Assembly: GCA_963770895.1 (NCBI GenBank)
Contig: CAVYRF010000002.1
Coordinates: 448,001-512,000, forward strand
DNA length: 64,000 bases
From: an uncultured Acidobacteriota bacterium
Lineage (GTDB): Bacteria; Acidobacteriota; Thermoanaerobaculia; Multivoradales; UBA5704
Reading direction: 5' to 3'
Numbering within the stretch: position 1 is the first letter of the stretch; every line of letters starts with the position of its first letter. The translations under genes were made by a program, and so were the position numbers. Of the stretch, positions 43,310 to 59,343 are shown in pieces. The notes below the pieces were generated by a model that saw only the letters and a program-made list of their open reading frames with translations, did no database searches and was not told where the DNA came from.

Positions 43310-44515
43310 TCAACCCTGGGCGGCCCCCAAGGGGTCTTCCAGTTCGCCGCGGTGGCGCAGCAGGCGGTCGGTCAGGGCTCGCAGGGGAAGCAGGAGGTCG
43401 TTCTGGGGCGCTATCAGCGGCCACTCAGAGCGCCGGCGGCGGAACAGGGCGTCTGCGCCGGGAAAAGTCGTCTGAACCGGCGCGGCAGGAGCGCCGGGAG
43501 CGGCGGCCTGATTGCGGCAGTAGGCTGCCTGGTGATCGCGGGCGATCGTGGCCGCCTCCCGCAGACTGCCTTCCGCCAACAGCCGGGAGCAGACACCTTC
43601 CAGCAACAGCTCGGCCTCAGCGTGCCGGCCTGCCGCCATCGCGATGAGGCCTTCGGTCCAGGCGCGCCGCAATGCTTCGTGCGGTGAGGCCGGCAGGGTA
43701 TAGAGACCTCGCGCGCGCTCCAGCCACACCGTGCCCGAGCCTTCGGCCAGCCGAATCTCGCACTCGGCACAGGCCAGGGCCACCCGCACCGTCAGGGAAG
43801 GGGCCAGCGCCGGCTCCAACAGGTTCCAGGTGCGTTGCAGGGCCTGCCGCGCCAGCATCCAGTCACCGGCAGCGAGCTGGAGGAAGCCGGCCTCGGCCAG
43901 GCACGCCGCGGCGGAACCGCCCAGCGCCAACTGCGCGAAGACGCGGGCAGCTCTCTGGAAATGCTCCGCGGCGTCGCGCCAGGAGCCCGCCTGCTGGTCC
44001 ACCTGTGCGAAGCCGGCCGTCGCCAGCCCCAGCTCCTCGGACGGAGGATCGTAGACGACAAGATCGAGCATCTCTGAAAACGCCTGGCGCGCCCCGGCAA
44101 CGTCTGCGCGGTGCAGGCGGGCTTTGCCGACCAGCCAGTGAGCCAGCGCCCCCGCCTTGCAAGCCCGCCCATCGCCAGCGCCTACCAGGCTGCCAGCGAG
44201 CACCGCCGCCAGCTCCGCCCGTTCCTCCACCATCGAGGCGTCGGCGGATCGCAGAAGCGCATCCTCCGCCTGCAGGTTCAGCAGCATCACCAGCGTCACC
44301 CGGTGGAAGCGAGGCTGCCTGCGAGCGAGCGGCAATCGCTTGTCCCGCACCATCGCCAGCAGCTGGTCCGCCAGGGCGGCATCCAGCAGCGCACCGGCGA
44401 GCAGAGGCGACGCAGGTTCCTCGCCGGGCCGGTTGTCTGCGGCAGAGAACCCTGGATCGAGCGGCTCGCCCGGAGCCGGCTCGGCGCCCCGTCGGCCGCT
44501 GCCATTGCGCACCAT
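43310..44515 (-). CDS. TPR-like helical repeat protein C1 (paralog of 50698-51993)
   Basis: Shares PRFHR, AGALAHWL.GKA.LHR, PSEELGLA, RVALACAECE, WLERAR.LY.LPA and LTDRLLR..GELE with C2. Confidence 0.7.
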   Translation of the reverse strand: MVRNGSGRRGAEPAPGEPLDPGFSAADNRPGEEPASPLLAGALLDAALADQLLAMVRDKRLPLARRQPRFHRVTLVMLLNLQAEDALLRSADASMVEERAELAAVLAGSLVGAGDGRACKAGALAHWLVGKARLHRADVAGARQAFSEMLDLVVYDPPSEELGLATAGFAQVDQQAGSWRDAAEHFQRAARVFAQLALGGSAAACLAEAGFLQLAAGDWMLARQALQRTWNLLEPALAPSLTVRVALACAECEIRLAEGSGTVWLERARGLYTLPASPHEALRRAWTEGLIAMAAGRHAEAELLLEGVCSRLLAEGSLREAATIARDHQAAYCRNQAAAPGAPAAPVQTTFPGADALFRRRRSEWPLIAPQNDLLLPLRALTDRLLRHRGELEDPLGAAQG

Positions 44516-44553
44516 CAGCTATCCCTTCGCCGCGATCGCATTCGACCGAGCCT

Positions 44554-45126
44554 TCAGCAAGTGCCTCGCCCGTGGCACGCCGCCGGTTGAGCTACTCTGG
44601 CGCCATACGCCGCTCGATCGATGCCGTAGCACAGCACCTCGCTGCCTTGATGCTCCATGCGGTGCTGGAACGTTTCGCCCGCGCGTTCGACCAGCCGCAC
44701 CGCGGCCGTGTTATCGGGATGGATCAGACTGATGACCTGATCCTTGCCCAGGGTGACGAAGGCGTGGGCCAGCGCTGCATGGTTGGCTTCCGTCGCATAG
44801 CCCCGCCCCCAGAAGCCACGAGCCAAGCGGCCGGCCAGCTCGCAACCCGGCCACCCCTCGGCCTCCACCAACCCGATCAAGCCGCAAAATGCGCCGCTCG
44901 CCCGCTCCTCCACCGCCCACATGCCGCACCCGCTGAGATGCCAGCTCCCGATCATGCAGGCCATGTGTCGCCACGACCGGGCGCGATCCCACAGCGCTCC
45001 TTGATCGAAATACCGCATTACCTCCGGGTCCGCATGCAGCGATGCATAGTCATCGAAGTCGGTGCGCTGCAAACACCGCAACATCAGCCTCTCGGTTTCC
45101 AGATTGGGGACTGCCTGCATGAACAT
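44554..45126 (-). CDS. GNAT (RimJ/RimL-like) N-acetyltransferase
   Basis: LETERLMLR, DPEVMRY, FWGRGYATEA and IHPDN. GGGAGG RBS. Confidence 0.88.
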   Translation of the reverse strand: MFMQAVPNLETERLMLRCLQRTDFDDYASLHADPEVMRYFDQGALWDRARSWRHMACMIGSWHLSGCGMWAVEERASGAFCGLIGLVEAEGWPGCELAGRLARGFWGRGYATEANHAALAHAFVTLGKDQVISLIHPDNTAAVRLVERAGETFQHRMEHQGSEVLCYGIDRAAYGARVAQPAACHGRGTC

Positions 45127-45487
45127 GCGATGGTCCTCCCAAAAGTGCGTGCGCGATGCGCGACCGAGGAAAACGAGAGCACGGCTAGTCACAGTCGCCC
45201 TCGGGCTCGTCCAGCTGCCACCGGCCGCCAGCGTGGCAAGGCGGCCCGGCATCCCAACGGGATTTATTTTGTAGGGGCCGGTGCCACTTGGGCTGCGGAA
45301 GCAAACTGATGCGAGTAAAAACCACTTACGAGGGCACGAAGCGGTACTTTCGTTCTGCGCGCGCGGGCCAAGGACCAGACCCGCCTGCCCGCCCAGATTT
45401 CTTCGAAGCGAAGCTCCGGGTTCTGGCGCGCGCTGAAGAGGCAATCGATGCCGGCGCCGACAACTGAGGCGGCGTTACCCCAACGCT

Positions 45488-46882
45488 TTAGGCCGCGCGC
45501 CGCAGAAGATCGAGAGCCCGCTGCGCCTCGCTGTGCAGTTCCAATGCCTCGAAAATGGCCATGGATTCATGCGCCAGAGCCTTTACCTCTGCCGACTTGC
45601 CCTGCGTCGCATGAATTTCCGCGAGTTCCAGGGTCACGAGTGCGGCAATGTAGACATTGTGGCTTGCGGCAAAGTCCCGACGCACCTTTTCGAAACCGGT
45701 CACGGCCTCGGCCACGCGGCCCTGGCCGGCCGCCACGCGGCTCTCTAACCAGCTTACTCGCAGGAGTTCCAGCCGCTTGCCGAATCCCTCAGCCATGGAG
45801 CGGATCTCAGAAAGCAGAAGCTCCGCCTCGTGATAACGCTTCAGCTGACATAGATTGACGGCCAGGTTCTTCCGAACGATGTAGTACTTCCATGGCTCTT
45901 GCTCAAAACCGATGTGTCCGGCCGCCTGCTGCAACCACTGGATTGCCCCCTGCAAGTCACCCATTTGTTCCAGGGTCCTGGATTTCCCGAGGAGCAGCGA
46001 TGGCATCTCGCCCCAGCGGTCGATCTTGAGCGCCTCGTCGAGAAGAGCCAGCGCTTCATCGAGCCGACGCTGCGCTCGCCGCAGCGACGCCTTCAGGTGG
46101 AGGACGCGGGCCTCATTGAGATACCCCGGGTCGGCCGCGGCACCCTCCTGCCAGAGCTCCATGCCGTACGCGAATGCCTTTTCGGCTGCCGCGAGATCCC
46201 GACCGCCCACGCGCAGAGCGTTTGCTACATGACATCGTGCATATCCCTCAAGCCGAGAGCGCCACCCGGCACCGACCGGCAGCCGACTGGCGATCAATAC
46301 AGCCAGATCGCCGAGACTTTCAGCCCTCTCGGAGCTATCGCCAGCGGCATCCAGGCTCTTGTCGCAGATCAGCACGCAGAGGCCAGGGCTCTGGAGGTCG
46401 TGAAGGTGGCACACCAACTCCCGCCGCACGGTGTCTGAGTAGCGGTCGATCCGCATCCAAAGCTCCGGCGCTGACCGGCGGCTCTCGATGAAGTCAACGG
46501 GTTCATAGGAGTGCCGGCTTGCCGTCAAATCACGCAGCACAAGGGAAGCAAGGTCAACCCCAAGATCCGCAGCGACGGTTGCGGCTGGAAGGCCTTGTAC
46601 CTGCAAGGTGGTTTGCGCCACAGGTAGGCGTGCCCCTTCGCTGCGAAGCCGGCCCAGAAGCGCAACCACTTCATCGATGGCGCTCAGGGGCATGCCGAGC
46701 GCTGAAGTAATCCGTGCCAGGGTCCCCGGGTTTGGCTCGCCCTTGCCTTGCTCCAGCCGCTTGATCGTATCGACGTGAATTCCCGCCGCACGGGCCAGGG
46801 CCTTCTGCTCCTGGCCTCGCGCCAGACGCAAGAAGCTCAGCGCCAGACCTCTATCGCTTCGATGCCCCGTCTTCGCCCTCAT
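45488..46882 (-). CDS. XRE-HTH + TPR regulator A1 (C-terminal tail degenerate)
   Basis: HTH LRLARGQEQKALARAAGIHVDTIKRLEQG. TPR core with ANALRV, NEARV, DRWGE and AALVTLELA. Stops before the conserved ARxxPxLxF tail. Confidence 0.8.
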   Translation of the reverse strand: MRAKTGHRSDRGLALSFLRLARGQEQKALARAAGIHVDTIKRLEQGKGEPNPGTLARITSALGMPLSAIDEVVALLGRLRSEGARLPVAQTTLQVQGLPAATVAADLGVDLASLVLRDLTASRHSYEPVDFIESRRSAPELWMRIDRYSDTVRRELVCHLHDLQSPGLCVLICDKSLDAAGDSSERAESLGDLAVLIASRLPVGAGWRSRLEGYARCHVANALRVGGRDLAAAEKAFAYGMELWQEGAAADPGYLNEARVLHLKASLRRAQRRLDEALALLDEALKIDRWGEMPSLLLGKSRTLEQMGDLQGAIQWLQQAAGHIGFEQEPWKYYIVRKNLAVNLCQLKRYHEAELLLSEIRSMAEGFGKRLELLRVSWLESRVAAGQGRVAEAVTGFEKVRRDFAASHNVYIAALVTLELAEIHATQGKSAEVKALAHESMAIFEALELHSEAQRALDLLRRAA

Positions 46883-47037
46883 TTGCGCGCACCCTCATTC
46901 ATTAAGATGGGGCAGGATGACCTCCCCTAGGGAGGCACAGCCTTGTATTTTGTGACCGCCGTCCACATCCAGGATCTTCGAGGCGCCCCGCGGCCAGGCA
47001 GGCCGCGTTGACGTCGCTTCCGAGAAAGGAGCATCCG

Positions 47038-47448
47038 ATGAAGCCGTTCTCCCGTCTTCTGATGGTGGGCATTCTCTTCACGATCTTAGCTGCGCCTGGG
47101 GCGCTTGCGGCCCCTCCATCGCCGCACAGAGTGTCCGCCGGCTCGCCGATTGGTCTCGCCGACGCGTGGGACAGCGTGGTTGCGCGCATGCTGGACTGGC
47201 TGGGCGAGCGGCCCGCAAATCACTCCGGCAGACCGTCCGCTTCGCGGGCGATGTCGCCTGATGAAGGTTGTACAACGGATCCGAATGGACTGTGTGCAGA
47301 TGCAGGGCCGAGAAAGCGGGTGCCATCGAACCTTTCGGCCGGGCCTGGCGGCAAGGCTCTTGGCTTGAGATTCCAATCCAGAATGCCCGTCGAGTCGCCA
47401 GCTGACACTGGTTGCTCGACCGATCCCAACGGGCAGTGCCTTCACTAA
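47038..47448 (+). CDS. Small secreted peptide precursor P2 with two DxGCxTDPNGxC cores
   Basis: AAGGAG RBS, signal peptide MKPFSRLLMVGILFTILAAPGALA, Trp helix AWDSVVARMLDWLG, and cores DEGCTTDPNGLC and DTGCSTDPNGQC. Confidence 0.78.
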   Translation: MKPFSRLLMVGILFTILAAPGALAAPPSPHRVSAGSPIGLADAWDSVVARMLDWLGERPANHSGRPSASRAMSPDEGCTTDPNGLCADAGPRKRVPSNLSAGPGGKALGLRFQSRMPVESPADTGCSTDPNGQCLH

Positions 47449-47517
47449 GGAGAGGTGGCGCTGGTAATGCCGGACAGGAGCGCTGATAGCGTTCCGATCG
47501 GACCCCAATGCCTCCTC

Positions 47518-49440
47518 TCATGCGGGCGTGCCCTCAAAGGGAAGCTGCGGATTGTGACGGGCCCGGTACAGATACTGGATGAGGCCGCTGAGGAATGAGC
47601 CCGTCGCTCGTTCTTCAGCGGCCGCCCGCCGGAACAGGTCCAGTGCCCGCTGCGCTTCGGCGTGCACCTGCTGCGCGGCGAAAATCGGCGCCGATTTTTC
47701 GGCCAGCACCTTTACCTCGGCCGTGCGCCCCAGGGCAGCATGGATCTGCGCCAGCTCCAGAGTCACCAGGGCGGCATCGTACGCATCCTTGTGACGGGCG
47801 AACTGCTGACGTGCTCGTGCCAGAAGTGAGGCCGCTTCTTTTGTTCGGCCAAGGCCGAATGCGATTTTGCCTTCGAGCCAGATGACCCGAATCTGCTCCA
47901 AGGGCTTGCCAAACTGCATCGCCAATGCATGCACGTTGGGAAGCATCAACGCGGCCTGGCCATACTGTCCGAGATGGCAGAGGGTGGCCGCCAGATTCTT
48001 CTGCACGATGTAGAACTTCCAAGGCTCTTGCTGGGGATCGATACGGGACGAGACCTCCCGCAACACCCTCTCAGCCAGGCTGAAGTCACCCGACTCCTCG
48101 AGCGCTTTAGCCTTGCTGAGGAGCAATGCCGTCGTCTCACCCCAGCGGTCGACCACCAGTGCCTTATTCAACAGCGCCAGAGCGTCCGGAATACGACGTT
48201 GGGCTCGACGCAGTGACGTCTCCAGGTGGAGCACCCGCGCCTCGTTGAGCAGCCCCTGGTCGGCGCCTGCACCGGACCGCCACAGCTGAAGGGCGGCATG
48301 AAATGACTTTTCGGCGGCAACCAGGTCGTCGCCGGCCACACGCATTGCATTGGCGATGTGGCATCGAGCGTAGCCTTCCAGTTGGCAGCGGAATGCCGCA
48401 TCCCCGGGCACTCGCGCCGCGATGAGCAGAGCGAGATCGGCAAGGAGGGCCGCTTCCCTTGCGCTGCCACCCGCGGCCTCCAGGCTCTTGTCGCAGATCA
48501 ACTCGCACAGACCGACGGTGTGGAACTCCGCCCCTTCGCAGACCAAAGCTCGCTGGGCATCCTCCGAGACACGCTGCAGGCACTCCCACTGCAAGGGCGC
48601 CTGCCAGCGGGAAAGCTGAACTCGTGCTACCCACACCAGCCCCTCAAGGCATACCGCCATCCAATCCTCGGCCCGGCGCGCCTGGGCAGCCACCACTTGC
48701 TCGATTGCCTCTCGCGTCGGATCGTCACTGATCGCCATGTGGGATTCCAGCGCCGACGCGGCCAACTGAACGAAACCGAGGGTCCGATCCAGCATCCCTG
48801 GCGGGAATCCCATCCCCTCGACAATGCGGTTGAGCGTCAGCATGCGGGGCACGGTCTTGCCAAGCTCGTAGCTCGAAATCGAGGTTTTGCGAGCACCGAC
48901 GCTCTCGGCAAGATCCTGCTGTCCAGATCTGCGAATCACTCGCAAGATGACCAGCACCACATCCACCGGGAGAGACCCGCGGTCGGACCTGGCCTTTTCA
49001 GGCCGGGAAGACCCGATCCCCGCATCCGTCGCCGGCGTAGCGCCGTCCGCACCTGAACCGTCCGCCTGCTCCCGCACATCGCGAAGGAGGCGCATCAGCA
49101 ACTGGCGAGCGAGCCCTTCCATCCATCCACCGGCTTCGACCGTCAGCCGGTCGAGCCACGCCGAAAGCGCGGGCTGGCCTGCCCCCACGTAAAGCTCTCT
49201 TTCGACCCGCGCCCAGCGCACAAAGGAAACGGTTCGATCGAGAAGCCTGGGTGGATAGCCCATGGCGGCAACCAACAGCTGCCGCGTTTCGAGCGAAGGC
49301 GTCTTCGAACCGCGCTCGAATTTCGCGATCGAGGTGACTTGCAAACCCGCCTGCTGCGCCAGCTCTGAGCGAGTCCAGCGGCGCACCACCCGCAGGATGG
49401 TGAGCGCCTCTGCCCACGGTAGCGCCGCGTCCTCCGCCAT
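47518..49440 (-). CDS. Tandem XRE-HTH + TPR regulator A2
   Basis: Two HTH domains (RRWTRSELAQQAGL...FERG; QQDLAESVG...YELGKTVP), TPR core and YLYRARHNPQLPF tail. Start chosen by GGAG RBS and homology to 52428. Confidence 0.82.
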   Translation of the reverse strand: MAEDAALPWAEALTILRVVRRWTRSELAQQAGLQVTSIAKFERGSKTPSLETRQLLVAAMGYPPRLLDRTVSFVRWARVERELYVGAGQPALSAWLDRLTVEAGGWMEGLARQLLMRLLRDVREQADGSGADGATPATDAGIGSSRPEKARSDRGSLPVDVVLVILRVIRRSGQQDLAESVGARKTSISSYELGKTVPRMLTLNRIVEGMGFPPGMLDRTLGFVQLAASALESHMAISDDPTREAIEQVVAAQARRAEDWMAVCLEGLVWVARVQLSRWQAPLQWECLQRVSEDAQRALVCEGAEFHTVGLCELICDKSLEAAGGSAREAALLADLALLIAARVPGDAAFRCQLEGYARCHIANAMRVAGDDLVAAEKSFHAALQLWRSGAGADQGLLNEARVLHLETSLRRAQRRIPDALALLNKALVVDRWGETTALLLSKAKALEESGDFSLAERVLREVSSRIDPQQEPWKFYIVQKNLAATLCHLGQYGQAALMLPNVHALAMQFGKPLEQIRVIWLEGKIAFGLGRTKEAASLLARARQQFARHKDAYDAALVTLELAQIHAALGRTAEVKVLAEKSAPIFAAQQVHAEAQRALDLFRRAAAEERATGSFLSGLIQYLYRARHNPQLPFEGTPA

Positions 49441-49625
49441 TCCATGCTCCAACCAAAGTGCCTGCCCTGAGAAAATCCGGTCCCAGCCCGCGGCCGTCCG
49501 CTGCAGAGGAGGACCTTCCAAGGATCTCTAACGTCCAGCACTGTAGAGCTTAAACGATCCCGCCATGATGGCGCTACAACCGAGGCGGTGAGGGCTTTGG
49601 ACCGGTAGCGCAGGCACCTCAACAA

Positions 49626-49892
49626 TTGCCCCGATCGCGACGCGCCTGGCGGCGCGTGCGCGATCGGGCCGGGGGGGGCGGGCGAGGCGTTTTGCCCCGC
49701 TTAGCGCTTCTGGCCGCGGCGGACGCGTTCGAGGAGGCGGGTGGAGTCTTTCATGCACTCCATCATTTTTTCTTGCAGGCCTTCGCCGCGGCCCAGGCCT
49801 CGGGCGTGGGCCAGGACGCTGCGGGCGCGGTCTTCTTCTCCGGAAGCTAGCAGGGCCATGCCGAGGTGGGTGAGGGTGTTGGCGGAGGGGCC
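49626..49892. repeat. Direct repeat copy 1 (267 bp): 3' end and hairpin of the TPR gene at 57494-59341
   Basis: Identical by eye to 57418-57685 except for a G8 versus G9 run. Confidence 0.9.
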
Positions 49893-50268
49893 GACACCGC
49901 ACCTGGGCGACGGCGCCCTGGTGCAGCACCTCGCCCAGGCTGCGCAGCATGCGCAGGACCGAGGCGTGGACGGCCTGCTGCTCCTCCGCGGTCAGGTCAT
50001 CCGCCGGGGCCTCCGCATCCCCGCCGGCCATGGAGAGCAGGAGAGCCACCATCGACGTCGTGAGCTCGCCGACTCCATCCGCCGTGCGCATTGCCGCCAC
50101 CAGTGCGTCGAAGCGCTCTTGGGTCAGGCGGATCTTGCCGTTTTCGTATTGGGACAGCTGACTGCTGCCGGTTCCGCTGGCCTTCGCCAGAGCGGTTTGC
50201 GTCCATCCGTTGATCGCCCGCACGATGGTCAGCGATAGCCCCAGGGCGGAGGGTTGCGATCGGTTCAA
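49893..50268 (-). pseudogene. Truncated XRE-HTH(-TPR) regulator
   Basis: HTH LSLTIVRAINGWTQTALAKASGTGSSQLSQYENGK. The frame runs into repeat copy 1 after ...AVAQVRC and then reads out-of-frame junk to 49528. Confidence 0.65.
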
Positions 50269-50690
50269 ACTACCTTCCCCTCATAGAACTGACTTTCCAG
50301 CAGGGCGTTGGTCACCTCGACGGCTGCCAGCAAGGCGTCGGCCGCCGGCTCCAGGTGATCGCTGATCGCGCCTTCTACGGCGGCACGAAGATCCATCCCG
50401 ACGGTGTACGGCGCGCAGTGCTCCTCGCGCGCCTTGAAGTCATCCGGCAGCGGGATCTGTCCGTACAGCTCGCGCAAACGACCCGACAGTTTCTTGATCT
50501 GCGCTGCGATCAGGCGGAGCTGGCGCTTGCGAACCGACAGCGGGTCTTGCGGCCTGCCCGCTTTGCGAGCGGTCTTCCCGGACCGCACCACCGATGCGGG
50601 TCCCCTGCCCGTCCCGGCGTTCCCGGGCGCGCACGACATCCCGTCGAAGGGTGCTGCGATGCGCAGATCAGCAGACCGCTCGCGCGCCAT
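50265..50690 (-). CDS. Small helical hypothetical protein coupled to the HTH gene
   Basis: GGAG RBS. The stop overlaps the TTG start of the HTH gene. Helical segments QLRLIAAQIKKLSGRLRELY and DLRAAVEGAISDHLEPAADALL. Confidence 0.6.
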   Translation of the reverse strand: MARERSADLRIAAPFDGMSCAPGNAGTGRGPASVVRSGKTARKAGRPQDPLSVRKRQLRLIAAQIKKLSGRLRELYGQIPLPDDFKAREEHCAPYTVGMDLRAAVEGAISDHLEPAADALLAAVEVTNALLESQFYEGKVV

Positions 50691-50697
50691 GTCGGAC

Positions 50698-51993
50698 CTA
50701 CTCCAGCATCTCGGGCGAAGCGCCGCACACAGGCTCGAGCTCACCGTGGTAACGCAGCAGCCGGTCGGTCAGGGTGCGCTGCGGGCACAGCAGGTCCGGG
50801 CGCCCCGGCACCGGCTGGTGCGCGCCCAGACGGTCGATCAAGGTGTTGACGGCCTCGTAGTACGCCCGGCGTCCGCGAGCGTCCAAGGCAACCAGATCGC
50901 GCAGCGCCTGCGCCCAGGGGACCCCAGCGATCGCAAAAGCCTGCTCCAGCCCCGCCGCCAGCGCCTCGCCCTGCAAGGCTAGGCCGCCCTCGACCCGCGC
51001 GGTCAGCAGGTCGCAGCTCACGGTGACCGCTTCGGCCAGGCTCCCCTCGCTCAGCAAGCGTGCGTGCACCGCGCCCAGCTGCGCCAGGGCCTCGGCAAAG
51101 CGCCCCGCCGCGGCGGCGATGTGGCCTTCCGCCCAGGTGCGAGCCACGTCCTCGCACCATGGCGCGGGCAGCGCGTACAGCTGTCGCGCGCGCTCCAACC
51201 ACGGTTCCGCATCCAGACCCACCTCGCCCCCCTGGCGGGCTTCGCACTCGGCGCAGGCCAGCGCCACCCGCACCGCCGTCACCGTCGCCGCTGCCTGATC
51301 TTGCAGAAGGACCCAGGCGCGCTTCAGGTTGCCGCGGGCCGCGGCCAGGTCACCCGACTCCATCTGCAGAAAGCCGATTTCGGCCAGGCACGCGGCCAGC
51401 GGCAGGCGCGCCGCGGCCGCGGCGAAGGCGACGGACGCGCGCTGGAAGTACATGACGGCGCTATCCCACCCGCCGTACGCCTGCGCCACCTGCGCCCAGC
51501 CGGCATGCGCCAGGCCCAGTTCCTCGCTCGGCTGGTGCGGCACCTCCAGATAGCTGTGAATACCGCCCAGCGCCGCCGCGGCGGCCGCAGGATCACCACG
51601 GTGCAGGAGCGCCTTGCCCAGCAGCCAATGGGCCAGGGCACCGGCCCGCCTCACGCGACCGCGGGCGTCCCGCACCACGCGCGCCGCCAGAATCGTCGCC
51701 AGCTCGGCCTCCTGCTCGCCGGCATCGGCGCCGTGCGGTGCCAGCACCGCACTTTCGGCCTCCAGGTTGAACAAAGTCAGCAGCTCGGCGCGGTGGAAAC
51801 GTGGGTCTTGTTGGGCCGTTTGTAGCCGCACGGCCCGCGGCATGGCCATCAGCTCCCGCGCCAGGCAGACAGACGCATAGGCGCGTTCCAAAGGCCGGTC
51901 AAGCCAGCCCGAGGCGCCGGGGCCATCTGGCACGGCCGGCGTCAGGCGGAGCGGGGGATTTTCGCCGCGGCGCAAGCTGCCTTCTGGCTCCAT
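50698..51993 (-). CDS. TPR-like helical repeat protein C2
   Basis: Paralog of 43310-44515. GGGAGG upstream of the ATG at 51993. Start uncertain. Confidence 0.7.
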   Translation of the reverse strand: MEPEGSLRRGENPPLRLTPAVPDGPGASGWLDRPLERAYASVCLARELMAMPRAVRLQTAQQDPRFHRAELLTLFNLEAESAVLAPHGADAGEQEAELATILAARVVRDARGRVRRAGALAHWLLGKALLHRGDPAAAAAALGGIHSYLEVPHQPSEELGLAHAGWAQVAQAYGGWDSAVMYFQRASVAFAAAAARLPLAACLAEIGFLQMESGDLAAARGNLKRAWVLLQDQAAATVTAVRVALACAECEARQGGEVGLDAEPWLERARQLYALPAPWCEDVARTWAEGHIAAAAGRFAEALAQLGAVHARLLSEGSLAEAVTVSCDLLTARVEGGLALQGEALAAGLEQAFAIAGVPWAQALRDLVALDARGRRAYYEAVNTLIDRLGAHQPVPGRPDLLCPQRTLTDRLLRYHGELEPVCGASPEMLE

Positions 51994-52316
51994 GATCGAT
52001 GTCACCCTCCCAAGGATCGGTTCTTCTCGTACCTGCATGTCGGCGTTGCCAGGTGCACGGCTCAGTCCTCGGAACGGGAAATACCCAGCGGCCTTGCCGG
52101 CCTGGCCGAGCACAGGTCACCAGCGGCACGGTTGGCCTGATCGAGCTTCGCTCCGCGCAATCCGGCGGTACCGCGTTACCGGCCACCTCCAGGTCCAGCC
52201 ACCCGATCCATATGCAGACGCTACCCTGCGCTCGACACCTAACCCCCTGGATCTGCCCTGGCGCTGCATCCGGCGTCATTGCCAGGAATCGTGAAATCTC
52301 TTAAGATGGGTATTCG

Positions 52317-52342
52317 TTGACACTTCGTTGCCATGCAACGAA
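52317..52342 (+). promoter_or_regulatory. TTGACA box followed by a perfect palindrome (candidate operator)
   Basis: TTGACA at 52317-52322, then TTCGTTGC-CAT-GCAACGAA at 52324-52342, in the divergent C2/B1 intergenic region. Confidence 0.45.
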
Positions 52343-52427
52343 ACAGATGCAGCTGGGACGCCGCGCATCGGTCGCGGAGGCGCTGCGCGCCACGCACCCG
52401 GGCATCCACCGATCTTCTGGAGGCGAC

Positions 52428-54347
52428 ATGGCGAAGGACCCGAGGCCGGCCTGGGCCAAGGCCCTCACCACCCTGCGGCTCATCCGTCGTTGGAACCGAA
52501 GAAAGCTGGCGCAGGCGGCAGGGTTGTCGGCCAGCGCGATCACCCGCTACGAAAAAGGCGATCGCGGTACGGTCGAAGACGCGATACGCCTCGGCTTTGC
52601 CATGGGATTCCCCCACCACGTCTGGCAGCGCGTATTGGAATTCGTGGTCGCGGTCGAGGGCATGCACGCAGGTCAGCCGTCGACGCCGGATCAAGGCGCC
52701 AACAGCTCGATTGAAGCGATTGCCAGGACCGCTGCAAAGTGGACAGAGGCGCTGATCAAGTCGGCACTGACCACGACTCTGGTCGAGTCGCGCCGGCAGC
52801 TGAACGTCGCTTCCGTGCCTGCAAAGCGCCAGCCGGCGCGCTCCGCGCTCGCGGGGCGAGCATCGCACGCCAAGCGACCTGCCGCCGCGCCCAGCGCCCC
52901 GCCGGCCACCGGCGAGGCCATCGTCATCCTCCGCATGATGCGTAGCTGGGAACGGCAGGATCTCGCCGACGCAATCGGCCGGCCCGACGAAACCGTCGCC
53001 AACTACGAGTACGGCAGGACTGTGCCCAATCCCCAGGTGCTGCGCGCCCTGCTTGCAGTCATGGACTATCCCCTCGCGGCACTCGAGGCCGCGATCGAGC
53101 TCGTTCATATGGCGCGGGAAGCACACAGGCTCTCGCGCGACGTCGGTCGCGACAGGCAGTCGGCCGAAATCGCCACGATCGCGGCGCAAAAAGCCCGGAG
53201 GGTCGCAGCGTTTACCCGCGGAGAGATGGAAGAGTTGGCGGTCGTGGCGCGGGTCCTGGTGTCCCGCGACGGAGCCGAAAGCCTGTGGGCATCGCTTTCT
53301 GCTTGTTCCGAAAGGAGCCAGCACGACTTGGTGCGCCAGCTGGTTCTGTACCAGACGCCGGGATTTTGCGAGCTGCTCTGCGACGAGAGCCTGAAGGTGG
53401 CGGGGGACAGTGCGCGGCGAGCCAAGCACTTGGCCGAACTGGCGGTCCTGGCCGCCGAGCTGGCCACTGGCAGCGACGCCTTTCGCGCCCGCCTACGCGG
53501 CTTCGCCGGCGCTCACCACGCCAATGCCCTGCGGGTCGCCGGACATCACCTGCCGGCGGCGGGCGCGGCGTTGGATCGCGCCCTGGCGGCGTGGAATGCG
53601 GGTGCCGGGTCCGATGCAGGGATGCTCAATGCAGCGCGGGTATGCGGCCTTCTCGCGTCGATGCGACGCGGACAGCGCCTCCTGCCGGCAGCCATCCAGG
53701 CGCTCGACGAGGGGCTCAGGGTCGACCGCTGGGGCGAGACGCCGGTGCTGCGGCTCGCCAAGGCAAGGGTGCTGATTGAGATGGGAGACTTCGCAGCATC
53801 CATCGATCAGCTGCGGCGGGCGGAGAGCGATTTAGACGGCGAGGCCGAGCCACGACGGTTCTACGTGATCGAGAACTTGCAGGTGCTCAACCTGTGTCAT
53901 CTCGGCCAGTTCGCAGCCGCCGAGCGGAAACTGGCCAGTCTGCGCCGGCTGGCGCGGAGCAATCGGCTCGACCTGCTGCGGGTTGACTGGCTGGCGGGAA
54001 AGGTGGCCGCTGGGCTGAGGCAAGAAACAGAGGCGCTCGCCTTGCTTCTGCAGGCGCGTGCCGGTTTCGTCGAGGTGGGCAACGCCTATGACGCTGCCCT
54101 GGTGACCCTGGAGCTTGCTGAAGTGCAGTCCTCGCTAGGCCACACCGCCGAAGTCAAAGCGCTTGCCCGCAAGTCGGCGCCCATCTTTGCGGACCAGCGG
54201 GTGCACCGGGAAGCGCAGCGGGCGCTCGCATTGTTTCGCGCCGCGGCGGAAGAGGAGAGGGTTACCAGCGACCTGTTGCGTCACCTGATCGTCTATCTCT
54301 GCAAGGCCCGTCACGATCCATCCCTCCGCTTCGCCGCAGAGGGTTGA
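52428..54347 (+). CDS. Tandem XRE-HTH + TPR regulator B1
   Basis: GGAGG RBS. HTHs RRWNRRKLAQAAGL...YEKG and RQDLADAIG...YEYGRTVP, TPR core and ARHDPSLRF tail. Confidence 0.83.
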   Translation: MAKDPRPAWAKALTTLRLIRRWNRRKLAQAAGLSASAITRYEKGDRGTVEDAIRLGFAMGFPHHVWQRVLEFVVAVEGMHAGQPSTPDQGANSSIEAIARTAAKWTEALIKSALTTTLVESRRQLNVASVPAKRQPARSALAGRASHAKRPAAAPSAPPATGEAIVILRMMRSWERQDLADAIGRPDETVANYEYGRTVPNPQVLRALLAVMDYPLAALEAAIELVHMAREAHRLSRDVGRDRQSAEIATIAAQKARRVAAFTRGEMEELAVVARVLVSRDGAESLWASLSACSERSQHDLVRQLVLYQTPGFCELLCDESLKVAGDSARRAKHLAELAVLAAELATGSDAFRARLRGFAGAHHANALRVAGHHLPAAGAALDRALAAWNAGAGSDAGMLNAARVCGLLASMRRGQRLLPAAIQALDEGLRVDRWGETPVLRLAKARVLIEMGDFAASIDQLRRAESDLDGEAEPRRFYVIENLQVLNLCHLGQFAAAERKLASLRRLARSNRLDLLRVDWLAGKVAAGLRQETEALALLLQARAGFVEVGNAYDAALVTLELAEVQSSLGHTAEVKALARKSAPIFADQRVHREAQRALALFRAAAEEERVTSDLLRHLIVYLCKARHDPSLRFAAEG

Positions 54348-54513
54348 ACCATCCACCCCGCCAGGGCTCGGACCGCAACCATGAAACCGCAACCGGTCCT
54401 GGGGGCAAGCTCCTGCGCGAGCTTGTCTGCGACAGGCCTGCTCGGCGGCAGGCTCTCGATCCCGAGCGATTCGACCGCGATCGTGACGGAGAGCCCACCG
54501 TTCGCCGGCGTGC

Positions 54514-54816
54514 CTAGCCGCCGTAGGGGTCGGCTCCCGGTCCTTCGTCGGACTGCGAGGACGGTGGAGGCGCACCGGCCGGTTGCGCCAAGGCGTTCTC
54601 GAGACTCGACGTCGCATGTCCAGACGGGACTCTTGCCGATCCAAGCGTCGGTAGCCGATTCGACAGCCAACCCCAGAGAACCGCCAAGGGTTGCCAGAGT
54701 GAAGAGGAGGCACCACCTGGAGCGTGGGCCGCAACCGGTGAGGCAAAGGCCGCAAGAGGAGGCAGAACGATCAAAAGGACCAGGCCAAGGGCGATGACGC
54801 GGGGGACACGGTGCAT
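54514..54816 (-). CDS. Small secreted peptide precursor P3 (C-terminal SDEGPGADPYGG*)
   Basis: AAGGAGG RBS, signal peptide MHRVPRVIALGLVLLIVLPPLAAFA, Trp helix SLWQPLAVLWGWLS and a terminal DPYGG. Confidence 0.78.
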   Translation of the reverse strand: MHRVPRVIALGLVLLIVLPPLAAFASPVAAHAPGGASSSLWQPLAVLWGWLSNRLPTLGSARVPSGHATSSLENALAQPAGAPPPSSQSDEGPGADPYGG

Positions 54817-54989
54817 ACAGATCCTCCTTGAGCGGGGCGACTGCGAACGCGGCCGGCATGGACCGCGACGGTGCCCCCGAGAGCTACAGTGCCCAGGGTG
54901 TCAAGAATACTGCTAAAAAGTGCGTTTCCAGGGCCTGAAATCTACCCTGTATTGACGCCGCTTTGCCAGGTGCCGTGAGGAGCCTCACT

Positions 54990-56867
54990 ATGCCAGGAGT
55001 GATGGGACGCAGCGACGAGCTGGGATTGGTGCTGATCCTCTTGCGCCACCTCAAGGGCTGGTCGCAGAAGGAGCTGGTGGCTGCGTCGGGAGTCAGCTTC
55101 GGCGGTCTCCGCGGTCTGGAGCAGGGGCAGAGGCGCCAGCCGACGCTGAAGACTCTGGCGCCGCTTGCGATGGCCCTCGGCGTGGACCTGGCAGCCATTG
55201 CCGAGGCGGCAGCCGTGATCCATGGCCTGGGTGGCGCGACCCCACCAGGTGCAGCAGCCGCGGCAACCAGCGGCGCTGAACGGGCCGATGACCTGGTGAT
55301 CACGGTCGAGCCGGACGTTTCTCAGAGCGTCACCGCTGCTCTCTTGGCTGCCGCGTCGGTCGCTTCGCCTGGCCCCGGCCTGCCGCGCAGCGCAGCGCAT
55401 CAGCAGCCGGTGGCGGAAGGGAGCCAGGATCTGGGCCTGGCGGTGAAGCTCCTGCGGTTGCGACGCGGTATGGCGGTGGTGGACCTCGCTCGAATCACGG
55501 GGATGACCGTCGCGACACTGCAAGCGCTCGAGAATGCCAGGCTACGGACACCGCCGGCGAAGCTGTCCGCCGTCCTATCGGCTCTTGGCGTCGACCAAGC
55601 GACGCTGGCAACGACCCTTTCCTTGATCTGCAAGCTCCGGCGCCTGGTGGTCGCGACTGCTTCGTGGGCGGAACAGCCAGCGCTCCCAATGCAAAGCTTG
55701 GCGGAGCCCACCACCTTGCGAGACCAGCTTGCCGCCCTGCTGCTTGACGAGGCCACTGCGGTGCCCGAGCAAGCGGCTTGTGAGGACGAAGCCCGCCAGC
55801 GGGCCACGGCGCTTTGGTCCCTGCTTGCACGTTGCCCACAGACAGCTCTACGGGCGCTGGTACGTCAAGCGCCCGAGCTGCAAAGCGTCGCAGCCTGTGA
55901 AATGTTCTGCCAGCAAAGCCTGGATGTGGCGGGTGACAGCGCGCGCCGGGCAAGGCAGCGGGCCGAGCTGGCGGTCATGGCGGCCGAGCGGGCTCGCGGC
56001 AGCGCAGGCCTTCGCGCGCGCCTTGCAGGCTTCGCCGGCGTTCACCTCGCCAATGCCCTGCGCGTCGCCGGCACCAGCGTACCCACGGCCGGTGTGGCGT
56101 TCGATCGCGCTCTGGCAACCTGGAATGCGGGCGAAGGCGCCGATGGCGGGCGATTGAATGCAGCGCGAGTGCGCGGCCTGGAAGCTTCGATGCGGCGGGC
56201 GCAGCGCCGGCTCACCGAGGCGCTGGCGGCGGTAAACGAAGGTCTCCGCATCGACCGCTGGGGTGAGGCACCGGCCCTGCGCCTCGCCAAGGCCAGGGTG
56301 CTCATCGAGATGGGTGAGTTCGCACCATCGATCGACCAGCTACAGCAGGCCGCCGCTGCAATCGACGGCGATCGCGAGCCGCGCATGCTCTATGTCGTCG
56401 AGAACCTGCACATCCTCAACCTGTGCCACCTGGGGCAGTTCGCGATAGCCGCCCAGCGCCTGCCCAAGCTCCGGCTGCTGGCACAGAGCAATCGCCTCGA
56501 CCTTTTGCTTGCAGAGTGGCTAGCCGGCAAGGTAGCGGCCGGGCTGGGCCGTGTGGCAGAGGCGCTCGCCCTGCTGCTCCAAGTGCGCGCCGATTTCCTG
56601 GAGCGTCACAACGTCTACGACGCGGCCCTGGTCACGCTGGAGATAGCCGAGGTCCACGCATCGCTGGGCCACACGGCAGATGTTAAGGAACTGGCCCGCG
56701 CATCGGCGCCCATCTTCGTGGACCAGCGGGTGCACCGAGAAGCGCGGCGCGGCTTGGCGCTCTTCCGCCAGGCAGCCGAAGACGAAAAGGCGACCGGCGA
56801 GTTGCTCCACCGGCTGCTCGTCTATCTGCGCAGTGCCCGCCAGGATCCCCACCTGCGCTTCGCCTGA
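54990..56867 (+). CDS. Tandem XRE-HTH + TPR regulator B2
   Basis: GAGGAG RBS. HTHs KGWSQKELVAASGV...LEQG and RRGMAVVDLARITGM...LENA, TPR core and ARQDPHLRF tail. Confidence 0.83.
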   Translation: MPGVMGRSDELGLVLILLRHLKGWSQKELVAASGVSFGGLRGLEQGQRRQPTLKTLAPLAMALGVDLAAIAEAAAVIHGLGGATPPGAAAAATSGAERADDLVITVEPDVSQSVTAALLAAASVASPGPGLPRSAAHQQPVAEGSQDLGLAVKLLRLRRGMAVVDLARITGMTVATLQALENARLRTPPAKLSAVLSALGVDQATLATTLSLICKLRRLVVATASWAEQPALPMQSLAEPTTLRDQLAALLLDEATAVPEQAACEDEARQRATALWSLLARCPQTALRALVRQAPELQSVAACEMFCQQSLDVAGDSARRARQRAELAVMAAERARGSAGLRARLAGFAGVHLANALRVAGTSVPTAGVAFDRALATWNAGEGADGGRLNAARVRGLEASMRRAQRRLTEALAAVNEGLRIDRWGEAPALRLAKARVLIEMGEFAPSIDQLQQAAAAIDGDREPRMLYVVENLHILNLCHLGQFAIAAQRLPKLRLLAQSNRLDLLLAEWLAGKVAAGLGRVAEALALLLQVRADFLERHNVYDAALVTLEIAEVHASLGHTADVKELARASAPIFVDQRVHREARRGLALFRQAAEDEKATGELLHRLLVYLRSARQDPHLRFA

Positions 56868-57100
56868 TTCCTATGAGCACGAAGCCCGTATCATGGACGA
56901 GCAAGCCGAGAGACGCCGGACGGGATTCGATCACTGATCTAACACTGCGACGGGCGGCGCTTGGCAGCGGCGAGCCGCACCGTGCGGGCGTTCGTTTTTT
57001 CAGTCTCGACCGCCGGCTTGGCGCCGGTGCGTTCGGCGGCGCCCGCCCCGAGGCCAATCCCGACCGGGCGCGGTTGGCGCGCCAGAAAGGGCACTCGTCC

Positions 57101-57643
57101 ATGCATAGTTCCGTCGCGCTTCGCATCGCCAAGGTCACGGCCGCGCTAGCCCTGATGGTACCCCTGGCCCTGACGGCCAGGACCCCTTGCAGGTTCGCGG
57201 TCTCTCATCAGCAAATGGTCGCGGGCACCAGCATTCTGGACCAGGCATATCGCTGGTTCGTCTCGGTCCTGCCCTGGAGCAGCCCCGGCACCGAGCCCCG
57301 GCCTCTTCAGCGCGCCCCAGCTCGTCCCGTGAAGCCGCTCACCACGTGTACGATCGATCCAAGCGGCGGTTGCGTCAGCAGCAATATCCCGGCATCTATC
57401 CAAAGCGCCAAAAACAGTTGCCCCGATCGCGACGCGCCTGGCGGCGCGTGCGCGATCGGGCCGGGGGGGGGCGGGCGAGGCGTTTTGCCCCGCTTAGCGC
57501 TTCTGGCCGCGGCGGACGCGTTCGAGGAGGCGGGTGGAGTCTTTCATGCACTCCATCATTTTTTCTTGCAGGCCTTCGCCGCGGCCCAGGCCTCGGGCGT
57601 GGGCCAGGACGCTGCGGGCGCGGTCTTCTTCTCCGGAAGCTAG
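57101..57643 (+). CDS. Small secreted peptide precursor P4 (TCTIDPSGGC core; 3' end uncertain)
   Basis: AGAAAGG RBS, signal-like N-terminus, aromatic helix ILDQAYRWFVSVLPW and core at 57341-57373. The ORF runs on antisense into the neighbouring gene. Confidence 0.6.
   Translation: MHSSVALRIAKVTAALALMVPLALTARTPCRFAVSHQQMVAGTSILDQAYRWFVSVLPWSSPGTEPRPLQRAPARPVKPLTTCTIDPSGGCVSSNIPASIQSAKNSCPDRDAPGGACAIGPGGGGRGVLPRLALLAAADAFEEAGGVFHALHHFFLQAFAAAQASGVGQDAAGAVFFSGS
57410..57460 (-). terminator. Probable intrinsic terminator of the TPR gene
   Basis: Stem CCCGATCGCG-ACGCGCC / GGCGCGT-G-CGCGATCGGG, followed on the minus strand by CAACTGTTTTT. Confidence 0.55.
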
Positions 57644-59341: not shown

Positions 59342-59343
59342 CC

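Follow-up and report, generated by a model that had tools for sequence, protein, structure and literature searches.

The region of acidobacterial DNA analysed here, part of a stretch of 64,000 nucleotides (the window), consists of two copies, W1 and W2, of a recurrent cassette in which a small peptide gene lies between two regulator genes in the order Rb -> <- peptide / Ra ->. The gene anatomy, the conserved linkage of peptide and sensor genes, the modular outputs, the similarity of the two sensor domains within a cassette and the TPR fold are established. The findings suggest peptide cell-to-cell signalling in a Gram-negative lineage. We give an even chance to the overall reading, namely that the region holds two peptide-plus-sensor regulatory cassettes, typical of one Thermoanaerobaculia order, which work by export, processing and sensing of the peptide.

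An earlier reading made from the letters alone (the sequence-only reading) had proposed four paralogous XRE-HTH/TPR proteins, one truncated HTH gene, two TPR paralogs that lack an HTH, and three small genes encoding a signal peptide and a DPxG core. All were found, either exactly where they had been placed or at most about 110 nt away. HTH_3/HTH_31 domains are present in all four receptors (Pfam; alignment) and are doubled in three of them, as the proposal of tandem HTH domains had it; the three other receptors are 41–48% identical to the one at 45488 (alignment A1). The three peptide genes also exist, but the third one owes its 3′ half to a dispersed REP-like palindrome. The features of the window that bear on the cassettes are as follows.

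23751–25448, minus strand: remote sensor-domain family member, lying outside the cassettes (sensor HMM E 9e-16; TPR_12), in which no family-type HTH was found
43310–44515, minus strand: T-family protein, 401 aa, HTH-less, by profile a remote homologue of the receptor sensor domain
44554–45444, minus strand: GNAT acetyltransferase (Acetyltransf_3; Pfam PF13302, E 7.6e-32, residues 119–256), a neighbour lying between the T gene and Ra
45488–46882, minus strand: receptor Ra of W1, 464 aa, one XRE HTH and a TPR sensor of ~335 aa (Pfam HTH_3, TPR_12)
46883–47037, no strand: divergent Ra/peptide control region of W1 (sequence; alignment of 12 upstream regions)
47038–47448, plus strand: precursor peptide of W1, 136 aa, with signal-peptide-like N-terminus, W..W pro-region and two C-x2-DPNG-x-C loops
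47518–49521, minus strand: receptor Rb of W1, 667-aa ORF, two XRE HTH, TPR sensor and conserved C-terminal tail (Pfam; alignment)
49621–49892, no strand: repeat copy 1, 272 nt, REP-like palindrome plus duplicated last ~64 codons of gene 57494–59437
49893–50268, minus strand: remnant of a third-type receptor, Rc, ~125 codons, HTH only (Pfam HTH_3)
50265–50690, minus strand: 141-aa ORF lying between T and Rc; five weak paralogs occur in the genome, and the family search gave no match
50698–52113, minus strand: T-family protein, 431 aa when counted from the ATG at 51993, and transcribed divergently to Rb of W2
52317–54347, plus strand: receptor Rb of W2, two XRE HTH, TPR sensor and tail (Pfam; alignment)
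54514–54816, minus strand: precursor peptide of W2, 100 aa, with signal-peptide-like N-terminus, LWGWL motif and Cys-free C-terminus ...ADPYGG
54963–56867, plus strand: receptor Ra of W2, start probably at 54990, two XRE HTH, TPR sensor and tail (Pfam; alignment)
57101–57643, plus strand: third precursor-like ORF, with signal-peptide-like N-terminus and one C-T-I-DPSG-G-C loop
57413–57685, no strand: repeat copy 2, 272 nt, with the REP-like palindrome at 57418–57462
57494–59437, minus strand: zinc-ribbon and canonical TPR protein, 647 aa, at the island edge (Pfam), missing from the 48 matches of the sensor-domain HMM

Ra of W1 is transcribed divergently from the peptide gene, and Rb of W1 is convergent with it. 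Genes of the HTH-less T type and of the Rc type are frequent neighbours of the cassette. Rb of W1 probably starts at the ATG at 49440, giving 640 aa, and Rb of W2 probably at 52428, giving 639 aa; proteins of 640 aa (P0009) and 639 aa (P0104) are listed for the window's own contig, and we take these to be Rb of W1 and Rb of W2 respectively.

The truncated HTH ORF (49528–50268, minus strand) is HTH-type only over its first ~125 codons, from 50268 down to 49893, and the remainder runs antisense to the 272-nt repeat. The two repeat copies are 99% identical, and copy 1 marks the rearrangement junction that truncated the Rc gene. The N-terminus of the Rc remnant matches the N-termini of Rc-type receptors of 677–841 aa in four other cassettes. 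From 57413 onwards the third precursor-like ORF is read-through of the REP-like palindrome (36 BLAST hits in the genome), and its apparent cysteine-loop repeats past this point are repeat DNA, not peptide core. This ORF is without an SD-like motif and is possibly decaying.

Precursors of the family are 90–180 aa long, and the expectation that they would exceed those of RRNPP systems was borne out (>100 aa). Signal peptides were called by a simple rule and by eye. The C-terminal part of each precursor carries one to five copies of a turn, [C]-x-[ILV]-DP-x-G-x-[C]. Most copies are nine-residue loops closed by a cysteine pair, and the cores are therefore probably disulfide loops. In the best 150 of 960 clusters (E ≤ 1e-10), 433/456 cores were Cys-flanked, and in 121 of these 150 clusters the last core is followed by 4 or 6 residues. 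The W1 precursor has two copies of C-[TS]-T-DPNG-x-C. The W2 precursor and its kin have a single, Cys-free C-terminal DPYGG, and three W2-precursor paralogs with this ending adjoin sister receptors. The family comprises at least 960 clusters at 50% identity. No Pfam or NCBIfam family was found for the peptides or the HTH-less paralogs; the sequence-only reading, too, had recognised no named system.

SD-like motifs were present at 15 of 17 precursors, compared with 538 of 5000 random ATGs; AAGGAG lies 7 nt ahead of the W1 peptide ATG and AAGGAGG 6 nt ahead of that of W2. A leader motif (...CCGGCCGCG...) in the Ra/peptide region of W1 is common to most cassettes in the alignment of 12 upstream regions. 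When the Ra/peptide and T/Rb intergenic regions were searched for operators, no convincing inverted repeat was found. By analogy, the SD-like motif and the C-terminal cores would fit pheromone pro-peptides, and multi-pheromone pro-peptides are known from RRNPPA systems, according to the available text of two reports (PMC11343458, PMC9765709).

The genome from which the window comes (8.16 Mb) contains 48 ORFs with the sensor domain, and all 13 precursor-family ORFs directly adjoin one of them, mostly as Rb -> <- pep / Ra ->. A scan by motif only, independent of precursor-family membership, returned 82 signal-peptide/DPxG ORFs; 17 of them lie no more than 600 bp from a sensor ORF, and sensor ORFs make up 1.7% of the genome. 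The sequence-only reading had given, as the first finding that would refute it, a lack of enrichment of DPxG ORFs beside homologous receptors in other genomes; enrichment was found from both directions. When peptides were taken first, 12/15 matches, in five genomes, had a receptor within 1.5 kb. When receptors were taken first, 24/40 loci from 13 genomes held a signal-peptide/DPxG ORF, compared with 72/2000 random 5-kb windows, these being taken from the window's own genome only; no peptide ORF was detected by the crude filter at the remaining 16 of the 40 loci. The proposed layout, in which an XRE-HTH and TPR regulator adjoins a small gene for an exported pro-peptide, exists and is conserved from genome to genome. 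Of 201 genomes in the window's class, 15 contain the family. Among 8000 scored candidates there were 264 receptor matches. Homologues are named Thermoanaerobaculia bacterium, which bears out the supposed Acidobacteriota origin; a protein-cluster match (Protein Atlas) gave only unnamed Acidobacteriota clusters, at 0.89, which is under the tool's trust level.

The peptide-sensor pair is kept while its output varies, between one or two XRE HTH domains, no HTH (T) and no family-type HTH. None of the 22 sensor ORFs in loci L078–L097 has a family-type HTH. In L084, in L088 and at C2:5718841 of the window's own genome, the peptide and sensor genes are separated by a gene for an ECF sigma factor; 2/8 neighbouring ORFs tested matched ECF sigma factors, and there was one weak match. 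In the remoter genomes an N-terminal H-x3-C-x2-C segment was present in 9/61 sensor ORFs, compared with 21/7174 control ORFs, and Pfam zf-HC2 matched none of 10 proteins with such an N-terminus.

As judged from alignments and trees, sensor domains track the cassette and DNA-binding parts track the position within it. Ra and Rb are sisters on the sensor tree in W1, W2 and two further cassettes, K1 and K4, and the HTH+linker tree places the Rb proteins together in one clade (93/86). In AU tests, whose groups were chosen after the first tree and the identity table had been seen, an Rb clade was rejected on the sensor tree (p 1.5e-7), and within-cassette sisters were rejected for the HTH+linker in W1 (p 0.010), W2 (p 0.0026) and K1 (p 0.0012). 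Identity between Ra and Rb breaks sharply ~320 residues from the C-terminus (80–97% versus 23–33% in K1; 64–77% versus 18–37% in W2), and by domain the W2 pair is 66% identical in the sensor and 28% in the HTH+linker. In K2, K3, K5 and K7 Ra and Rb fall into separate clades on the sensor tree and show no within-cassette similarity. The similarity where it occurs could be plain gene conversion of tandem paralogs and functionally meaningless.

Linkage of this kind would be expected just as much between a regulator and its target. The regulators might control the peptide gene, and probably others, but sense something else, the Cys-loop peptide being an extracellular effector such as an antimicrobial, adhesive or metal-binding mini-protein. 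We regard this as possible though doubtful. Tandem arrays of two to five disulfide-stapled loops would be in keeping with a stable product outside the cell, and the cassette genes encode no dedicated transporter, importer or processing protease. The DPxG core, almost identical across the ~18 cassettes of one genome, varies too little between paralogous cassettes to be expected of private signals; a signalling system would need a few flanking residues to confer its specificity, with massive cross-talk otherwise. A signal in the form of a disulfide-closed loop would need two outer-membrane crossings as well as import, the host being presumably diderm. These last two points, like the lack of a transporter or protease gene in the cassette, count against signalling. 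However, the peptide gene stays with the sensor even where the output is swapped or missing, which is a better fit to a ligand and its sensor than to a target and its regulator. HTH-less T proteins would be unable to regulate a promoter alone, and the two sensors flanking one peptide gene have been kept alike while their DNA-binding parts diverged.

The AF2 model of Ra of W1 (pLDDT 87.9) consists of all-helical repeats over residues 128–463, with the HTH at the extreme N-terminus; inspection of the receptor translation by eye revealed neither a transmembrane segment nor a signal peptide. Against Pfam-A at E ≤ 0.01 the receptors matched generic TPR and HTH families only and no RRNPP-specific family, and against NCBIfam they matched only HTH families, below threshold. 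A profile of 70 homologues, compared with all PDB sequences, gave no match through any RRNPP sensor, and its matches run through the HTH (PlcR, E 2.3e-4, residues 3–69) or designed consensus TPR. The comparison with the NprR fold that the sequence-only reading had called for gave a divided answer: the sensor ties with Rap and NprR, but generic TPR proteins score equally high and stand first in the Foldseek search of the PDB, with Rap at ranks 27 and 33. Since LGN and APC subunits score like Rap and NprR, the fold does not single out pheromone receptors. Complex prediction with the sensor of 45488 (residues 125–464, alignment A4) and the last 32 residues of the 47038 precursor gave a score of 0.02, with the mark at 0.32, which counts neither for nor against binding. 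The two T proteins of the window are 45% identical to one another and contain no HTH by Pfam; a T protein was modelled with a pLDDT of 80.8. Profile comparison with the receptor sensor (hhalign 97.4%, E 1e-11, 317 columns) identifies the T family, at the sequence level, as remote homologues of the sensor domain. It has ~10 members in the genome, several of them beside receptor clusters.

In the signalling mechanism that we favour, the small pre-pro-peptide would be exported by the Sec pathway, as its signal-peptide-like N-terminus suggests, and one or more DPxG units would be cut out of its C-terminal part. The peptide would then be taken up into the cell, where an Opp/Dpp-type binding protein (PF00496) is a candidate component, with two genes in the genome, one at 222–1787 of the window. 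The neighbouring regulators, which are cytoplasmic, would bind the released peptide, or possibly the unexported precursor, with the concave groove of their ~330-residue TPR sensor. Binding would alter the regulator output, which in Ra, Rb and Rc of the window would be one or two XRE HTH domains and in remoter genomes a Cys-motif N-terminus beside an ECF sigma factor gene; T proteins, with no HTH output, would serve as partners in the manner of Rap or as sinks for the peptide. The two receptors of a cassette may be tuned to the same peptide while carrying different DNA-binding modules, so that one signal would drive two regulatory outputs.

Alternatively, the TPR sensor may bind the precursor through its DPxG region prior to export, still within the cytoplasm, and the regulators would then read the balance of synthesis and secretion rather than cell density. 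In type III secretion, TPR chaperones of substrates similarly free a co-activator once the substrate has left the cell. As the cytoplasm is where receptor and precursor alike are synthesised, neither outer-membrane passage nor import would be needed. This would sit well with a diderm cell and with a cytoplasmic sensor that has anti-sigma-like variants. Extended, unfolded peptides do bind in TPR grooves; the LGN and Rap complexes, which are among the best fold matches, are examples. Against this, Sec substrates are normally present only briefly in the cytoplasm, the paired cysteines of the cores (counted above in the best 150 of 960 clusters) point to an oxidised, exported form, and we know of no precedent with Sec substrates. 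We consider such feedback unlikely.

It is highly improbable that Ra and Rb simply form a heterodimer through their TPR domains, with a common dimer interface or gene conversion behind the sensor similarity and with the small ORFs as incidental passengers. RRNPP-type TPR regulators do dimerise via their C-terminal repeats, and sister sensors with a sharp identity break are the expected product of gene conversion between tandem paralogs. The small ORFs, however, are conserved in at least 960 clusters and preceded by SD-like motifs, and they also accompany lone sensors in two-gene modules that have no second receptor. A phage or defence origin was dropped for lack of support, the island being flanked by housekeeping genes (FAD monooxygenase, 3-hydroxyacyl-CoA dehydrogenase) with no phage gene among the ORFs examined, as was a RiPP cluster, no maturase being present among the neighbouring genes scanned.

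Cytoplasmic TPR-receptor peptide signalling is regarded as a hallmark of Bacillota and their phages, and Gram-negative bacteria are known for small-molecule signals. Our literature search found no description of such a system outside Bacillota. In their available text, PMC10075063, PMC9765709 and PMC12700828 describe RRNPP-type systems only in Bacillota and mobile elements and mention no Gram-negative or acidobacterial hosts; supplementary tables might list other phyla. Returning to the signalling reading in its fullest form, the cassettes would be the first cytoplasmic-receptor peptide-pheromone system in a diderm phylum, using disulfide-looped DPxG peptides from multi-copy precursors. The TPR sensor would have arisen independently of the RRNPP sensors or have diverged too far from them for its sequence to show it, and would serve at least three outputs (XRE repressor/activators, ECF anti-sigma-like and Rap-like HTH-less). 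Recombination would keep a receptor pair on one peptide while their DNA targets differ, with ~18 such channels in one 8-Mb soil genome. We hold this joint reading to be somewhat short of an even chance. If true, it would extend cytoplasmic-receptor peptide signalling to a diderm phylum, in abundant and poorly cultivated soil Acidobacteria, add a new peptide chemotype in which a nine-residue disulfide loop encloses an Asp-Pro-x-Gly turn, and provide a natural example of one sensor domain in HTH, anti-sigma-like and stand-alone formats. If the peptides are effectors, they would still form a very large unnamed family of secreted mini-proteins with dedicated regulators.

The sequence-only reading had likened the region to RRNPP systems; layout and conserved linkage agree with this, but sequence homology of the sensor does not. 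The cassettes are at best an analogue and not a demonstrated member, since the sensor has no detectable sequence homology and peptide binding and processing are steps that we infer. They share with RRNPP/RRNPPA (NprR-NprX and PlcR-PapR; more distantly Rgg-SHP, PrgX and AimR-AimP) a cytoplasmic receptor in which an XRE HTH at the N-terminus is followed by a C-terminal TPR superhelix, and an adjoining small pro-peptide gene with a signal-peptide-like N-terminus and a conserved unit at its C-terminal end; many paralogous cassettes per genome and a gene for an Opp-type binding protein are further likenesses. They differ in the sensor, in a host that is an acidobacterium and presumably diderm rather than one of the Bacillota or their plasmids and phages, and in precursors of 90–180 aa with mostly Cys-flanked nine-residue loops rather than short linear unmodified peptides. 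Typically, two receptors here flank one antisense peptide gene, and the HTH is often doubled. ZAS is the zinc-binding anti-sigma motif of ECF anti-sigma factors. The remoter sensors recall ZAS anti-sigma/ECF pairs in their H-x3-C-x2-C N-terminus and, in some loci, an adjoining ECF sigma gene, but differ in the lack of zf-HC2 matches; none of the window's own receptors has this form. The T proteins are by sequence remote homologues of the local HTH-TPR receptors and not of Rap. Rap-Phr systems, including phage Rap with tandemly duplicated pheromones (PMC11343458; PDB 8rte, 4i1a, 4gyo), are nevertheless alike in two respects: several pheromone copies per pro-peptide, according to the available text of PMC11343458, and, in the predicted models, a TPR superhelix without a DNA-binding domain, present here in the T proteins of a putative peptide-signalling locus.

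Every gene named in the sequence-only reading is present in the window. In the receptors listed here, XRE-type HTH and helical repeats were assigned with Pfam; T proteins are HTH-less relatives of the receptors.

43310-44515, minus strand: T protein, without HTH
45488-46882, minus strand: HTH+TPR receptor, one XRE-type HTH, then helical repeats
47038: precursor with two C-[TS]-T-DPNG-x-C loops
47518-49521, minus strand: HTH+TPR receptor, two XRE-type HTH, then helical repeats
49528-50268, minus strand: truncated HTH gene, HTH only
50698-52113, minus strand: T protein, without HTH
52317/52428-54347, plus strand: HTH+TPR receptor, two XRE-type HTH, then helical repeats
54514: precursor with C-terminus ...ADPYGG
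54963/54990-56867, plus strand: HTH+TPR receptor, two XRE-type HTH, then helical repeats
57101: precursor-like ORF with one C-T-I-DPSG-G-C loop

The four HTH+TPR proteins are paralogous as proposed, and can be aligned with one another across the entire C-terminal ~340 residues. The tandem HTH arrangement ascribed to them was found in three; 45488-46882 has a single HTH. The T proteins share 45% identity, and their family profile is collinear with the sensor, the ~330-residue C-terminal TPR domain of the receptors (hhalign 97.4%, E 1e-11, 317 columns), making them true but remote paralogs. All three small ORFs have a signal-peptide-like start (basic, then hydrophobic) and a W..W motif, followed by DPxG units. 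No family was found in Pfam or NCBIfam for the peptides, the HTH-less proteins or ORF 50265-50690 (minus strand, 141 aa), which lies between a T gene and the truncated HTH gene; the genome encodes five weak paralogs of this ORF at other sites. The last ~30 residues of 47518-49521, 52317-54347 and 54963-56867 form a conserved post-sensor tail ending ...RHDPxLRF, which 45488-46882 lacks. This tail itself contains a DPx motif and might be an intramolecular pseudo-ligand.

The window, G000:C2:448001-512000, comes from a genome of 8.16 Mb in three contigs, with 71% G+C. The sensor HMM detected 48 sensor-domain ORFs in it and the iterated peptide HMM 13 precursor ORFs, all 13 directly adjoining a sensor ORF. 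In the usual layout (Rb -> <- pep, Ra ->) the precursor gene, pep, is convergent with the gene for one receptor type, Rb, and divergent from that for another, Ra. A T gene and a gene for a third receptor type, Rc, are frequently divergent from Rb, giving a super-cassette. Two cassettes lie in the window:

Cassette W1: Ra 45488, pep 47038, Rb 47518
Cassette W2: Rc remnant 49893-50268, ORF 50265-50690, T 50698, Rb 52428, pep 54514, Ra 54990, with the orphan 57101 ORF appended

When the genome was scanned by motif only, 82 ORFs had a signal-peptide-like start plus DPxG, and 17 of these were no more than 600 bp from a sensor ORF. Sensor ORFs make up 1.7% of the genome. The additional finds are simple two-gene modules that pair a distant sensor paralog with an immediately adjacent precursor carrying a single C-terminal DPxG unit; the precursor gene is upstream of the sensor gene in four modules and downstream in one. 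An SD-like motif precedes 15 of 17 precursors, compared with 538 of 5000 random ATGs, and is missing from the 57101 ORF. A leader motif (...CCGGCCG...; consensus ...GCCAnTnCCGGCCGCG...) is common to 12 aligned upstream regions, ~30-45 nt before the precursor ATG, at 46990-47010 and about 54845-54865 in the window and in 10 other cassettes of the genome. It is conserved although the peptides are only 20-35% identical. Upstream of this motif, three cassettes (K2, K3 and K7) also have an AT-rich block in common.

A 272-nt direct repeat (49621-49892 and 57413-57685, 99% identical once one base in a G run is set aside) flanks 7.5 kb containing cassette W2. The repeat opens with ~45-75 nt of palindromic, REP-like sequence; the ~45-nt GC-rich palindrome (57418-57462 and 49626-49670) gave 36 BLAST hits genome-wide in both orientations, one of them directly downstream of the Ra gene of another cassette (C2:1899691-1899762). 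The remainder duplicates the last ~64 codons of a zinc-ribbon/TPR gene, 57494-59437. One copy cuts off the HTH gene 49528-50268 after ~125 codons, and these codons match the N-termini of Rc receptors (677-841-aa ORFs), which flank four other cassettes of the genome. This identifies the truncated HTH gene as what remains of an Rc gene at the junction of a rearrangement. The other copy is read through by the 57101 ORF, whose 3′ half, with whatever further cysteine loop seems to be encoded there, therefore consists of repeat DNA; of the third small gene that had been proposed, the signal-peptide-like start and one DPSG loop stand. Either a recent insertion or recombination event or an assembly mis-join could account for the repeat.

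The cassettes occupy an island from ~43.3 to 59.4 kb with a G+C content of 64-71%, mostly ~65-67%, between flanks of 69-72%, and its neighbours at the two ends are genes for an FAD monooxygenase and a 3-hydroxyacyl-CoA dehydrogenase. Public receptor homologues carry the name "Thermoanaerobaculia bacterium", so the guess of an Acidobacteriota origin holds. Just outside the island, at 61416-63570 (G000:C2:509860-510531), lie adjoining genes for an ECF sigma factor (Sigma70_r2, 73.8 bits) and a zf-HC2 anti-sigma factor (35.7 bits), which look like a standard pair with no apparent connection to the cassettes. Another protein of the sensor family, a distant one (E 9e-16) without the family-type HTH, is encoded at 23751-25448 (minus strand); the 900 bp to either side of it yielded no DPxG ORF.

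The cassette was then sought in a class sample of 201 genomes, this one included. With 10-20 candidates scored per genome, so that counts are lower bounds, the sensor domain (E<=1e-20) was found in at least 15 of the 201 genomes and a peptide HMM match in at least 6. Sensor and peptide were both present in all four other genomes of the same family; among the candidates scored, no sensor was found in family f5 (0/29) or families f11-f20 (0/152). Starting from the peptide, 12 of 15 non-self matches had a sensor ORF within 1.5 kb. By eye, the remaining three were a non-peptide, a real single-core precursor with no receptor in its flank, and a tandem pair with receptors ~2.7 kb away. Starting from 40 loci in 13 genomes picked on the sensor match alone, a signal-peptide/DPxG ORF was present in 24, one of which proved by eye to be an unrelated lipoprotein-like ORF, compared with 72 of 2000 random 5-kb stretches of the window's own genome; the related genomes are non-independent and this background comes from that one genome. 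DPxG ORFs are thus enriched beside homologous receptors elsewhere, the point on which the sequence-only reading had mainly staked its refutation.

Of 1.84 billion representatives, 3364 matched a profile of 32 precursors at E<=1e-3 and 960 did so at E<=1e-10. Among the 150 best of these 960, 433 of 456 cores (DPxG units) fit C-x-[ILV]-DP-x-G-x(0-4)-C, with exactly one residue before the second Cys in 400; three cores per protein is the commonest number, and the last core ends 4 or 6 residues from the C-terminus in 121 of the 150. The W1 peptide is an ordinary member of this family, and that of W2 belongs to a Cys-free single-core DPYGG subgroup.

The paired receptors have a mosaic history. In the sensor tree, W1 (94/93), W2 (95/89), K1 (100/98) and K4 (98/96) each have their own Ra and Rb as sisters, and the Ra and Rb proteins of K2, K3, K5 and K7 form two parallel clades. 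In the tree of the proximal HTH and linker, Rb of W1, W2, K1 and K4 form one clade (93/86). In AU tests, for groups chosen after the first tree and identity table had been seen, the HTH and linker data rejected within-cassette sisters for W1 (p 0.010), W2 (0.0026) and K1 (0.0012) and did not reject them for K4 (0.084); the sensor data rejected the Rb clade (p 1.5e-7). Ra and Rb are 82% identical in the sensor and 28% in HTH and linker in K1, and 66% and 28% in W2, and the HTH and linker of Rb are 52% identical between W2 and K1. Identity breaks sharply ~320 residues from the C-terminus. The simplest reading of these sequences would be recombination or gene conversion limited to the sensor module, keeping both receptors of a cassette alike in sensing and different in their DNA-binding parts; such conversion need not be adaptive.

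The sensor is also separable from its output. The T family is a sensor without any HTH, and the family HTH was found in none of 22 sensor ORFs at remoter loci (L078-L097), many of which have an N-terminal H-x3(4)-C-x2-C segment in its place. The strict Cys motif occurs in 9 of 61 sensor ORFs, compared with 21 of 7174 control ORFs. This start resembles zinc-binding anti-sigma factors, but none of 10 Cys-motif sensor proteins matched Pfam zf-HC2, and the likeness is therefore no more than a lead. In L084 and L088 the pep and sensor genes have an ECF sigma gene (Sigma70_r2 and r4_2) between them, L078 gave a weak match (8 neighbouring ORFs tested), and the same arrangement recurs at C2:5718841 in the window's own genome (locus G000:C2:5716538-5719525). 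Across these changes of output the peptide gene remains with the sensor domain. This retained linkage speaks most strongly for the view that the sensor's ligand may be the peptide or its precursor, which would then be more than a regulated gene.

A signalling system working like RRNPP, with two DNA-binding outputs per signal, seems to us about evenly poised between right and wrong. The precursor would be exported and then processed, and the peptide would be taken up and bound in the TPR groove of the sensor, one signal thus reaching two DNA-binding outputs. Weighing most against it are the presumably diderm envelope and a core nearly invariant among ~18 cassettes of one genome. The genome has only two genes for Opp/Dpp-type solute-binding proteins (PF00496), one at 222-1787 (minus strand), 42 kb from the cassettes, which show only that peptide uptake is conceivable. 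The receptors may instead regulate a secreted effector peptide while sensing something else; the retained linkage argues against this, and we consider it rather unlikely. Export-coupled feedback, in which the sensor would bind the precursor before export, is doubtful. That the receptors reflect heterodimers or gene conversion, with the small ORFs as passengers, is highly improbable, the mosaic sensors notwithstanding.

The RRNPP-like reading was compared with known systems through the sensor fold. In the AF2 model of 45488 (70-sequence alignment, pLDDT 87.9), an N-terminal HTH is joined by an ill-defined linker to an unbroken helical-repeat superhelix; Foldseek placed generic TPR proteins on top, and Rap came 27th and 33rd. 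For the T model (pLDDT 80.8) the scores were 20.7 with LGN, 18.6 with RapI, 17.8 with RapH and 17.0 with MalT domain III. Peptide-binding TPR receptors share the fold predicted for the sensor, but so do generic TPR proteins, which match as well as Rap. Multi-pheromone pro-peptides are described for RRNPPA (PMC11343458; PMC9765709). Our literature search found no description of the cassette or of RRNPP-like systems in Gram-negative bacteria, including in passages picked out by term from the papers on RRNPP_detector (PMC10075063), RRNPPA evolution (PMC9765709) and structural phylogeny (PMC12700828). The cassette is real and conserved across genomes. The analysis also shows how T and Rc genes extend it to a super-cassette, that sensor and HTH have a mosaic history, that some variants are HTH-less or ECF-linked, where a REP insertion and a junction lie in the window, and how large the precursor family is and what consensus it has. 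Of the RRNPP-like system originally proposed, the feature itself thus stands and membership of RRNPP does not: the sensor is predicted to fold like the RRNPP TPR sensors, but comparisons with Pfam, NCBIfam and PDB profiles found no sequence link to those families. The window system is best described as an RRNPP-like analogue with a putative signalling function.
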